Below, piece by piece: positions 875 through 45,237 of a stretch of 64,000 bases of DNA (position 1 is its first letter; each line of letters opens with the position of its first letter). The stretch comes from Octopus vulgaris (Eukaryota): NCBI GenBank assembly GCA_951406725.2, contig OX597825.1, positions 39,866,001 through 39,930,000 on the forward strand, given 5' to 3'. Both the position numbers and the translations under genes were made by a program. The notes beneath the pieces were generated by a model. That model saw nothing but the letters and a program-made list of their open reading frames with translations. It was not told where the DNA came from and did no database searches.

Positions 875-950
875 TAGGAACCGGAATTTCGGAATATTTG
901 TCCATAGTTAACCTGATTTTTCTTTGAATTTCAAATGTTCACATAAGTAG
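875..950 (-). ncRNA. Heavily decayed type I hammerhead relic
   Basis: Minus strand: CTTATGT (for CTGATGA) GAACATTTG...CAAATATTC C GAAA; stem II retained, core mutated. Confidence 0.25.
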
Positions 951-3899
951 GCTGTGGATTGTACAAAGAAAAATTTTTCTTCCGGCGCTCATTATATATA
1001 ACAATGTTACAATAGCAGCAAAAGTCTGAATAAGTGATCATCTCGTTGCTAAATTTTGCCTCACATATAAACTTGCAGCCCCACGTACCTCGAAAAAAAT
1101 TAATCATTCTATCGTAATCAAATTCTTGCACTTAATTCGCTGTAGATGGCCAATAAGCACAGCTCGGCAATTATTCCCTTGAAGTCAAATAAAATAAGTC
1201 TCAGGAGGTGTCTCAGCAAGTAGTTGGAAGTACAACCTATACTATATCATGCATAAACCTTCTGACCAACCCATCACAATCACCCTCTCTCATATTCTAT
1301 CACAGCCTTATTTCATCACCTCAGGTAGTACATTAGCATTTCAACTTTAATCTATATTCATCAATAACTTTCAACTGTAAAGCTACATGAACATATACAG
1401 AAATGCATAGATTTTATTATTAGATTTAGATCATTTATATTCTTCTCCTCACATATACGTCTCTCAATTCTATATTCTTCACAAAGGTTTTGAAATGACA
1501 TACAACTATTATTATTCATTAAAAGGCATAATAGGAATTTACTGTATCCTAAGAAACTACTTTTACAGAAAGTTTATCCTCCAATCTCTTTACATTGTTA
1601 AAGTTATTACCGTCGAGAGAAAACATTCAACAACTTCAGTGCTTCTAGACTTAATTTATTTTCTAATTTGCACCTTTTTCAAGACAGAATTTTGAAGACT
1701 CTTTACCAGTGTATCTTAACATCTCTGAATTCTAGTTAGTCCGTAGCTTATTTCGGCCTAATATCTGCACACAATTCACTCCTCTCTGTCATCATTCTAT
1801 AGTACAATGAACCAATCAAGATCAAACTATTAAGGATATGGAATAATTAACACTTCTTTCATGTACCTAAGTACAATATAGGCATAATCCCTTCCAACGA
1901 ATATACTTAAATCTTCTATTGCATCTGATTTATAAAAATTTTCTCTTAGTCAAAATCTTCCGGTGTTATATGATAGCTACGGATAATAACGTTCGTTGTA
2001 CTTCTTACGCCGCAATATATACTTTGACTTGCAAAGAACGAAGTGGTTTCGCTATAATGACCAGTCAAGCCTCATCTCTCAGTGATAGCAGCGACTCTTA
2101 GTTTTTTTCCCTCCGGTTGTATTTTCTTCTCAGAGCTGAGACTATACTCCTGGTAGCTAATATTATTTCTTACATGAACGTAAGTGAGCATTTTAATAGG
2201 CGTTTCCATTTCTCTTTTCAGATTTTGTTCTACTCTATACAATTATGCTATGCATTTTTTCTTTATTGTTTTCTGTTTTTTGGCTTTCACTAGAACGCCT
2301 GCTTATTGTGTTTTACAGAAAAGCAGTGTCCGAAACACATGTACATGTTAAAGAAAGCATACATTAACAATTTTAAGATACATATCTCTAGCTACAGAAA
2401 AAATGATGCAATGAATACACTAAAAACATTTAATAAGTTCATGCACGTGCAATTTAAGACTTTACACTTTGTACGATATATATTTGAATCATTTCACACG
2501 CGCAAACACACACACACAGACACACACACACACACACACACACACGCGCGCGCGCGCGTTAGTGGTTAGGACGTTACTCTCATGAACCTTGGATCGTAGT
2601 TTCCATTCGCAGAATTGAAACAGACTGACTTTACGTGCAGGGAAATTAAATATGTACCTCTCTATATATAAACTGTTATACCCAGTTCTGATACGAATTC
2701 TCGATCTTTTCTGTATGTTTGACGATACTTCCATGTTTATACAAGTACAACATTTGATACTTATTTCTTCTTTCCTTGTTTTTCGACAAAATATAATTTT
2801 ATATAACAAAGTTAACTTGACGCTTTTCGCTTCCTATAGCCAGTCACTTTGTTTTGTTGAAGAATATCGATGTGAACAATTCTCACAGAATCTCACGATC
2901 GTTGTAGTAGGAAGTCCGTTACTCGAATACTGACAGATTTTCTAGCGGTTTTAGGTCTTGGTTTGATTTCCTAAACAGTTTTATTGCATATATATACACA
3001 TTTCCTTTCACTTCTCTAGCTCACTCCCACTATCATTCTATAACACATCTAGTAGATCACATTAAAGAATATATTATATTGTCTCATTTGCTAAACTTTT
3101 GTATTATATGATCATTATATTTTCACATCCAAATACATTGAATGGTGGATTTTTATGTAGAATAATTTAACATATGAAATAGTTAGAATACACATAACTG
3201 GAGTCTCTTTAATCAAATGGATATGTATCTGGTTAACAGAAAGTAAATATGTACGCAATATAAATAGTAAATTGAGGGTTATAAAGTTGTTGACATTTTG
3301 GATGATACTGAAAATATCTTAACTTTTTATGCATTTAAACAACTGGGATTCGGTATCCGAGGTGTCTGAGGCAATATATTTATTTGCAAAATCACATTAT
3401 TCATTTAGTTAAATGTATCGCAATTAGCGATTTGCAAATGTCTAATTATAAATCAACATTTGGAATAAAAAGAAAACAAATATACTCAACATTGCATTAT
3501 CCTTTTTGCTTGCAGAAGCATGGGGAGGATTCAGTACGTATGGCGCTTGTAATCTCTTCGATACCGCTTAGATTAATGTTGTTAATCTTGTTTTAGATTT
3601 TACAGATCAATGCGCGCAGGAGCAACCTAAGACGTGGCATTATTCCAAAAGGCAAATGACTTACGGGATAGACATGCAGGTAGACAGACAGACGGATAGA
3701 TAGAATGATAGATAGATAGTACCGCATATTGCCCAGGATCCATTGTATAGAACCAAATGAGATGACAGGTGCAAGCGCTGTTCAGAGGTACACTGCAGGT
3801 GCATGCTGGTGTCTGCCAAGGCATTAATACTGCATTGTATGAAAGTAGAAGACTGTAAGTCCAAACGTTAACGTAAATATTCAGTTTTAACACATTTTG

Positions 3900-4650
3900 G
3901 CCTAAACGATATTGAATCTTTGTTTTCTGCTTTTATTCAGCATTGGAGAATTCCTCTCACTTGGGATGATGCATATGCATGTTCGTCTAAATTGTCACTG
4001 TCGTTGTTTAGTCGATGGAGGATGCCCAGTTCCCTCGCATTAATTTCACAGAACTCTACTTCACTCTCACAGAATATCCCTATGCATTTCTCCACAGCAA
4101 AATCTACGTCTATAAATGGGTAGATGAAATCACCTCCATTCAACCCACAACACAAACTTTGCGGTCGTTGGATTGGTTGCAAGTACTGATTTTACTGAGG
4201 AGATCATGCATGCTAACACAGACATCTGGGGACATTTCAACGAGAGGTCGTAATACATTTGAGAAAAGGTAGGACAGTATATAATTGCTGGAGATATTCG
4301 CTCCGCAAACTGGTCGGGTTATGGGGGCCCCATGACAGGCTGCCGTTGTAGCTGGTGATGTTGCCAGCCTCTTCATGACCTGTTCAACCGTGGTCACTTT
4401 TCGATTTTTGTACGGACAATCTATGAGTGTATCTATCCATTCGTGCCGTTTTTCTTGGTTACCATGGTTGGGAGCGGTCTTTATAACGATTATGTTTTTT
4501 TATAAAGTTGGACAGCAATGTAGATGGTTGTTTTAGAGCATCCAACTTCGTTTGAAATAGCTTTATATCTACTAAGATGAACTGTGCTCGCTCTGGATTC
4601 TTGTGTTAAGTTTTGTCCTTTACCAATCACAACTATTAGGAACTTAAAAA
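3900..4650 (-). mobile_element. Penelope-like RT fragment, decayed
   Basis: Frameshifted ORFs 4140-4397 and 3937-4182 give TRPVCGANISSNYILSYLFSNVLRPL...DLLSKI...VVG*MEV / IYPFIDVDFAVEKC, corresponding to the PLE RT RP.. and motif A (S.DV.SLYPSI) region. Confidence 0.7.
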
Positions 4651-44500: not shown

Positions 44501-44917
44501 TGATACAAAAGTAGAATCAATACAATATTTTAAGTAGAAAAATTGATCAGATAAATTAAAAATAATAACAATAACTATTTAATGAAGAGGAGGTATGACA
44601 TAAATCATAAGCATTTGTGAGTTTGATACTTGGAAGAGCTATAGACTCTTGAATTTCTTCTTCACGTTCACCTACTGTGTTACATGAGCTAGAACTGCAG
44701 AGTAAACAGTTTTTGCCAGGGAAGCAATAAAAGAAAAAAACATGCAGAAATGAACTTTTCACTTCTTAATAAAATCTAACGCCGTCAAGGCGGGCAAGTA
44801 GTGTAGAAACTATATATATAAATATATATATATATATATATATATATATATATATATATATATATATATATATATATATATATAAGGAGATGTGGAACAC
44901 GAGTTGTGATATATAAA

Positions 44918-45237
44918 AAAAGGAATTGAAGAAAATGCTGACAAAATAATTTAAGTAAGGGAGAGTGTATTTAATTAGGGGAAAGTTATTTTTACCGGTT
45001 GCGCATTTGTTATGCTTATCAAAAGATATTTTTGAGAGAGATAGAGTTCCTTTCTGATAGATTTTTTTCTATTATCTGATAAGAGAAAAAAATCTATCAG
45101 AAAGGAACTCTATCTCTCTTAAAAATATATCTTTTGATAAGCATAACAAATGCGCAACCGGTAATAAGAACTTTCACCTAATTAAATACACTCTCCCTTA
45201 CTTAAATTATTTTGTCAGCATTTTCTTCATTTCCTTT
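44918..45237. repeat. Near-perfect ~320 bp palindrome between (TA)n tracts
   Basis: Arms of ~155 bp with only a few mismatches, centred near 45077. Confidence 0.9.

Follow-up and report, generated by a model that had tools for sequence, protein, structure and literature searches.

Ten predicted hammerhead ribozyme families in one stretch of the Octopus vulgaris genome: ends of Penelope-like elements and short non-coding units likely copied by Penelope-type enzymes

Here, we describe the hammerhead ribozyme motifs in 64,000 nt of the Octopus vulgaris genome (GenBank assembly GCA_951406725.2, contig OX597825.1, positions 39,866,001 to 39,930,000 of the forward strand; this whole stretch is hereafter called the window), which is AT-rich and abundant in microsatellites. 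Our results revealed ten repeat families with predicted type I hammerheads. Three of these (C, D, and E) are the 3′ ends of Penelope-like elements (PLEs) that bear open reading frames (ORFs), and at least four others (A, B, G, and H) consist of 355- to 555-nt units without an ORF that were likely copied into microsatellites by Penelope-type enzymes, a reading to which we assign a probability of about 0.85. A preliminary description of the window, made from its letters alone, had proposed about a dozen type I hammerheads from unrelated short non-coding elements moved by PLE enzymes. The ten families account, intact or decayed, for 13 of its 15 flagged sites, and the idea of mobilization by PLE enzymes holds for part of the set, since ORF-less families exist and show Penelope-type insertion geometry (A, B, G, and H), whereas C, D, and E are the usual 5′-truncated ends of PLEs with ORFs.

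The hammerhead motifs are real and occur well above the chance level. With two pairs required in stem III and pairing required of a stem II base, the descriptor returned no motif from the window, and a relaxed version was used; it recovered three exact type I motifs (24286+, 25404−, and 25683+) and five further motifs with at most one core mismatch, compared with means of 0 and 0.025, respectively, in 40 local dinucleotide shuffles, in line with the preliminary description. A wider descriptor scan found four motifs, versus a mean of 0.01 in 100 shuffles. Among the 13 confirmed sites, three hold canonical and intact copies, one (27258−) has a core with U at position 6 (U6) that is typical of its family, four combine an intact core with one helix mismatch (12866−, 18681+, 24896−, and 41230−), and five show core or cut-site lesions (6249−, 26122−, 26671+, 37488−, and 38782−). 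Several of the previously given motif positions sit 5 to 125 nt off the start of the core.

Because the window copies are mostly damaged, genomic relatives of each site were tested across 2.8 Gb in 227 contigs, where each site turned out to represent a repeat family, with between 111 and 4,047 candidates at first look. The descriptor (helices plus core) was passed by relatives of families A (10/18), B (19/19), C (7/19), E (8/14), G (11/14), H (9/11), and I (6/11), as well as D (15/19, with U6 allowed). No relative of family F passed (0/14), owing to a stem II mismatch; complete cores were present in 6 of these 14, and in 5 of 11 relatives of family K. Pairwise comparison of the sites linked only 25365/25677, 26050/26670, and 37449/41191, three pairs that each share a family and thereby qualify the earlier view that all of the stems belong to different ones, plus 27225 with a relic at 45324–45467. 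By inspection rather than by a formal covariation statistic, the stems differ between families yet pair, those of D are almost invariant, and copies carry post-insertion decay. The palindromic stem III previously attributed to the whole set is merely pseudo-palindromic in E and G. Five of the families (B, G, A, F, and D) are clustered within 24272–27327.

The ORF-less organization is best seen in family B, which has a period of 404 nt, forms arrays of up to five units that are 98 to 100% identical, and has a longest stop-free frame of 60 amino acids (aa). Its hammerhead has 47 exact matches at ~26 genomic sites, its 3′ motif has 81 matches, and the family is young. The first 30 of these 81 matches yielded 19 insertions, chosen by their 3′ part, and all 19 share one 3′ end, at unit position 247–250 within (TA)n. 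Their 5′ ends, by contrast with this fixed point, are scattered, and 15/19 insertions extend across position 73, after which the cut is predicted. Such a constant 3′ end, together with the passage of most insertions through the cut site, fits PLE-type copying from a circle or a multimer. Four of the 19 5′ ends lie at unit positions 72–85, 0 to 12 nt from the predicted cut (nominal P of 0.004, post hoc and without correction for the overrepresentation of short copies), which may hint at run-off where the RNA was cut. The copies are dispersed over many contigs with unrelated flanks; one pair lies inside a 3.5-kb segmental duplication. The circular fold of the unit is not unusually stable (−84 versus −77 ± 6 kcal/mol for crude shuffles).

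Families A, G, and H show the same recurrence of a 3′ end one short period upstream, at 352–356 nt in 5/19 distinct loci for A, 476–489 nt in 5/30 loci for G, and 552–556 nt in 2/12 loci for H. No sense-linked PLE ORF was found upstream of A, G, or H within 1.5-kb flanks searched with Hydra, Neptune, and Poseidon proteins, and the 30 G loci gave no real PLE protein match. Three of the 19 A loci have PLE protein matches alongside; these are antisense or downstream, at a frequency near the rough expectation from the relic density of the window, and we do not regard them as A's own. Judging from their unit structure, A, B, G, and H are likely non-LTR retrozymes, and the independent short families that had been supposed to exist beyond PLE ends are present. 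Inverted arms adjoin many copies of A, C, E, F, G, and H. In the window, B and G meet tail-to-tail in one (TA)n tract (24522–24615).

Families C, D, and E are the 3′ ends, or pseudo-long terminal repeats (pLTRs), of ORF-bearing PLEs of the Poseidon, Neptune, and Hydra clades, respectively, and their linkage to PLE ORFs sets them apart from independent ORF-less tandem units. The Neptune and Poseidon labels were assigned by motif rather than from a tree. For D, an initial sampling found a Neptune-type endonuclease upstream in 1/30 loci, and one pair of D motifs 3.2 kb apart had no ORF between them. Among loci selected by endonuclease (one counted twice), D lies 300 to 1,040 nt downstream of the Neptune endonuclease in 37/40, and 5/10 long-ORF copies lie between a pair of D hammerheads in direct orientation, ~4.4 kb apart. 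An independent-element reading of D was dropped because of this upstream endonuclease. Rather than A, D has U at core position 6, in 36/36 endonuclease-selected copies with a motif (the 4/40 loci without a recognizable motif left out) and in 15,730 exact genomic patterns versus 180 with A6. Its motif is more conserved than the flanks (0.97 versus 0.91), with variation concentrated at positions 7 and 17. Our literature search found no description of an A6U core, although the work of Lünse et al. on small PLE hammerhead variants could contain one.

Family C follows a Poseidon endonuclease in 27/30 endonuclease-selected loci, and in 24/30, a tRNA-like segment lies ~30 nt after the ORF stop and ahead of the pLTR. 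This position between the ORF end and the pLTR disfavors a separate short interspersed element (SINE) that was merely targeted by C. The segment contains A- and B-box-like motifs, identified by eye; ARAGORN at a relaxed threshold made no consistent call on it. In 30 C loci taken in genome order, the segment is in sense in 17, of which nine start 4 to 14 nt before the A box, four extend into the ORF or untranslated region (UTR; one of these is the reference itself), and four break at +27, where the reference is variant. The starts ahead of the A box are compatible with initiation by RNA polymerase III (Pol III), rather than a demonstration of it. No direct description of tRNA-headed PLE derivatives was found in the literature. 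We put forward, tentatively and as an idea more doubtful than probable, that D's Neptune element uses a U6 hammerhead that is under selection, a functional natural variant of the core whose rate or metal dependence is altered, and that C's Poseidon 3′ UTR holds an internal Pol III promoter, giving a ~300-nt SINE-like RNA mobilized by the same element. Family E runs into a Hydra endonuclease in 2/14 loci, one of which reaches the reverse transcriptase (RT).

Table 1. Hammerhead families and PLE relics of the window (nt positions within the window)
Feature	Position	Strand	Description
Family K relic	6040–6330	−	Type I hammerhead with long stem II; core from 6249, mutated at C3 and in stem III
Family E	12716–12928	−	3′ end (pLTR) of Hydra-clade PLE with short inverted arm; intact core from 12866 with one mismatch in stem I; cut predicted after GUU
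Family H	18630–18900	+	ORF-less unit of ~555 nt, likely retrozyme; intact core from 18681, with the first pair of stem I broken
Family B	24272–24523	+	0.6 of young 404-nt ORF-less tandem unit, likely retrozyme; intact hammerhead 24286–24348; fixed 3′ end at (TA)n
Family G	24616–25055	−	ORF-less unit of ~485 nt; inverted arm 25005–25055; core from 24896 intact, one stem I mismatch
Family A, left arm	25140–25627	−	1.4 units of 352–356-nt ORF-less unit; intact hammerhead 25404–25371
Family A, inverted right arm	25634–25873	+	Intact hammerhead 25683–25716
Family F, arm	25977–26297	−	Relic of a long-stem-II hammerhead from 26122, without U4 and stem I
Family F, second arm	26280–26731	+	Relic from 26671; GAAA and stem III lost
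Family D	27090–27327	−	Solo pLTR of young Neptune-clade PLE; minimal hammerhead 27258–27231, family-wide U6 core
Hydra-clade PLE ORF	31136–32894	+	Decayed, RT to GIY-YIG endonuclease
Family C	37394–37717	−	tRNA-like segment, (AAT)n, and Poseidon-clade PLE pLTR; minimal hammerhead from 37488, G12 lost
Family I	38482–40300 (upstream limit approximate)	−	Long-stem-II relic from 38782, cut triplet lost; at least 1.5 kb AT-rich non-coding upstream
Family C, second copy	41090–41557	−	Minimal hammerhead from 41230 (G10.1 mutated); Poseidon endonuclease scrap 41284–41412; inverted arm with tRNA-like segment
Family D-like older relic pLTR	45324–45467	−	70% identical to 27225; absent from the preliminary description
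Weak Neptune-type match	47469–47567		Protein comparison
Second Hydra-clade PLE RT	58081–58911	−	Decayed

The PLE coding relics (Table 1) emerged when Hydra, Neptune, and Poseidon proteins taken from the same genome were compared with the window. Neither 15 ORF fragments nor the six frames of 28500–34500 had yielded a PLE domain in Pfam, and a protein search with the 31037 fragment gave no match among longer proteins. They comprise two Hydra pieces, one Poseidon scrap, and one weak Neptune-type match, and the earlier count of at least six PLE relics is reached only when ends consisting of a pLTR alone are included. The fragment 31148–31492 retrieved many intact genomic ORFs of ~800 to 1,090 aa, which show RW(K/R/L), DKT, and, in one group, CxCX5C, all marks of the Hydra clade (PMC8557442). 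These intact Hydra ORFs carry long-stem-II hammerheads with 6-nt palindromes, and three intact elements end at (TA)n, ~220 nt downstream of the hammerhead. At one locus (G000:C1:119515000-119524900), three Hydra-clade ORFs stand head-to-tail, 3.6 kb apart, with the long-stem-II hammerhead ~330 nt before the open frame.

These observations suggest a route by which the ORF-less units, and B in particular, may spread. A tandem array would be transcribed, and the hammerheads would cut the array RNA, probably as dimers formed via the palindromic stem III. The unit RNA would then be ligated into a circle, or would remain an uncut multimer. A PLE endonuclease would nick a (TA)n tract, and the PLE RT would begin at a single fixed position inside the unit, ~175 nt past the cut site, and copy over varying lengths. 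Such copying would leave 0.4 to 5 units, constant at the 3′ end and ragged at the 5′ end, accompanied in most families by an inverted arm. Fixed 3′ ends at microsatellites, ragged 5′ ends, partial tandems, and inverted arms are the insertion pattern of PLEs (PMC8557442), and cleavage, ligation, and reverse transcription of more than one unit have been proposed before (PMC4209133). Family B fits that proposal, and an uncut multimer fits it too. As for the helper, the Hydra clade seems the most likely candidate, by a modest preference, given that the ~175 nt between cut and 3′ end in B resemble the ~220 nt between hammerhead and (TA)n in Hydra elements; this choice is drawn from geometry, as B shares no alignable sequence with the Hydra loci compared.

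Could all ten families simply be pLTRs that autonomous PLEs left behind in 5′-truncated form, so that none is an independent short element? This description does hold for C, D, and E, and families I and K have features that lean the same way: I resembles the 0.6- to 1.5-kb AT-rich 3′ UTRs of Hydra elements in this genome, and the stem III palindrome of K also occurs in one Hydra family. For B, however, it is refuted by the ORF-less arrays, and for A, G, and H, it conflicts with the 3′ end that recurs one short period upstream, so that we consider it very improbable as an account of the whole set. We give just as little credence to the ORF-less units having spread as DNA satellites, through unequal crossover or duplication, the hammerhead having come along as a passenger from a pLTR. 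Tandem amplification of pLTR-derived units on a local scale has been discussed (10.64898/2026.07.22.740005), and the B pair within a segmental duplication would suit it, but the dispersal of B, its single 3′ end at (TA)n, its ragged 5′ ends, and its unrelated flanks are marks of target-primed reverse transcription.

A more serious contender, although still one that we hold to be unlikely, accepts copying by PLE enzymes and disputes the part played by the ribozyme: uncut read-through multimers would be retrotransposed, and the hammerhead would cut little or not at all in vivo. The B insertions that run across the cut site are what this predicts, minimal PLE hammerheads are weak cleavers in vitro (PMC4209133), and D exceeds 15,000 copies despite its non-canonical core. 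Against it are the four B 5′ ends at or near the predicted cut and the better conservation of the D motif than of its flanks, with variation confined largely to two positions. Copying of hammerhead-bearing units by Penelope-type enzymes, which we prefer, is compatible with either template.

Several results weigh against our interpretation. Rfam reported no hammerhead family among the matches listed for the whole window (150 of 180) or in the 31 rows for 24100–27400. The tandem evidence for H consists of its two loci, the tandem periods of F are inconsistent (447 and 654), and no tandem period was found for I or K. ORF absence was judged within the 1.5-kb flanks (up to 7 kb for I) and for three PLE clades. 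Regarding the helper, B had no alignable sequence with 16 Hydra loci in a DNA comparison limited to Hydra loci, and Neptune pLTRs, not just Hydra elements, terminate at (TA)n. On the supporting side, contigs of exactly 434 nt (404 + 30) occur in three of four sequencing runs examined, and such a contig would be a closed loop of the 404-nt unit if the assembly word length is 31; as a point against, the RNA origin of these runs is guessed, and a circle, a tandem transcript, and DNA would be indistinguishable there. Lastly, only one of nine Xenopus retrozyme dimers was cleaved in vitro, according to one report (10.64898/2026.07.22.740005).

Families F, I, and K stand outside the two groups. Copies of I have at least 1.5 kb of non-coding upstream sequence in common, and no sense PLE ORF was found in eight extended I loci (up to 7 kb; three clades). 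Two flagged sites were rejected as hammerheads. The supposed relic at 875 matches a coding region that contains a restriction-like endonuclease motif of the HNRPD(I/V) type; an RPDI-type motif marks decayed coding pieces at 855–950 (−) and ~29400–29700 (−), both presumably from an R4-type non-LTR element. That at 45131 belongs to a young palindromic repeat in which no core was found in 12 loci. This two-armed insertion in (TA)n (44885–45236) is 99% identical, has 1,022 candidates, and carries a ~40-nt tail on one arm; its sampled single-arm copies begin at the same base (in a search that favored full-length matches), and it looks PLE-mobilized. Elsewhere, the window contains a fragment of the RVT_1 domain from a long interspersed element (9220–9648, −; Pfam E 4.7e-10), a weak mariner-type transposase fragment (36924–37355, +; PF01359, E 0.003), a 101-nt unit in 3.7 tandem copies (19878–20258), another interspersed repeat in two inverted copies that are 84% identical (12030–12245 and 40095–40310), and a 184-aa open frame with no Pfam match that is possibly a host exon (52715–53269, −).

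Metazoan non-LTR retrozymes have already been described (Cervera & de la Pena 2020, PMC7229834), and another report argues that they derive from PLEs and depend on them (Li, Clavereau & Pollet 2026, 10.64898/2026.07.22.740005). Like them, A, B, G, and H lack an ORF, have a short tandem unit with a single type I hammerhead, and are scattered as monomers to multimers (PMC7229834); the mussel units measure 350 to 390 bp and have been proposed to be non-autonomous PLE derivatives (PMC7229834, 10.64898/2026.07.22.740005). Unlike the described retrozymes, B and H have a very long stem II, and here, the fixed 3′ end and microsatellite target were taken from insertion sites. No cephalopod is mentioned in the available portions of these two reports, and our literature search found no direct description of octopus retrozymes. 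The contention that the elements are uncharacterized at the family level must be narrowed accordingly: the class and its PLE link are published, although the family-level catalogue in this genome may be undescribed.

The PLE ends find parallels of their own. Similar to the minimal hammerheads of PLE pLTRs (Cervera & de la Pena 2014, PMC4209133), those of C and D lack loop 3, have an extra base after A9 and a short stem I, and are found mainly in copies that stand alone or inverted, full elements being few. In the part of that study available, U3-A8 is named as the core variant, in contrast to the family-wide U6 of D. As in the endonuclease-positive PLE clades (Craig et al. 2021, PMC8557442), in which inverted 5′-truncated arms have been described, the Hydra elements target (TA)n; unlike the PLEs in the available portion of that work, the 3′ UTR of C's Poseidon family includes (AAT)n next to a tRNA-like segment. 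The inferred order in C, a Pol III-type promoter followed by a hammerhead, recalls the SINE-like hammerhead repeats of schistosomes (PMC6765202), but in C, the copies occur singly or inverted instead of in tandem, and the promoter-like segment belongs to an ORF-bearing PLE. An alteration at core position 6 is also known from the natural A6C hammerhead of phage Bcep176, which has low activity in Mg2+ and is rescued by Mn2+ (PMC3088659, PMC7151607). That case concerns C6 in one phage RNA, in contrast to U6 in >15,000 eukaryotic copies of D.

Since the system itself is already known, the value of this genome lies in its use as a test bed, with intact Hydra and Neptune ORFs and young ORF-less passengers coexisting in one genome. 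Family B, with ~26 near-identical hammerhead-bearing insertions and one fixed priming site, permits a direct test of whether PLE enzymes use a ribozyme-cut circle as their template, as has so far only been proposed. Family D provides an abundant natural mutant for asking whether PLE hammerheads must cleave. Finally, if the promoter reading of C is true, its Poseidon element would represent a SINE born inside a Penelope element.

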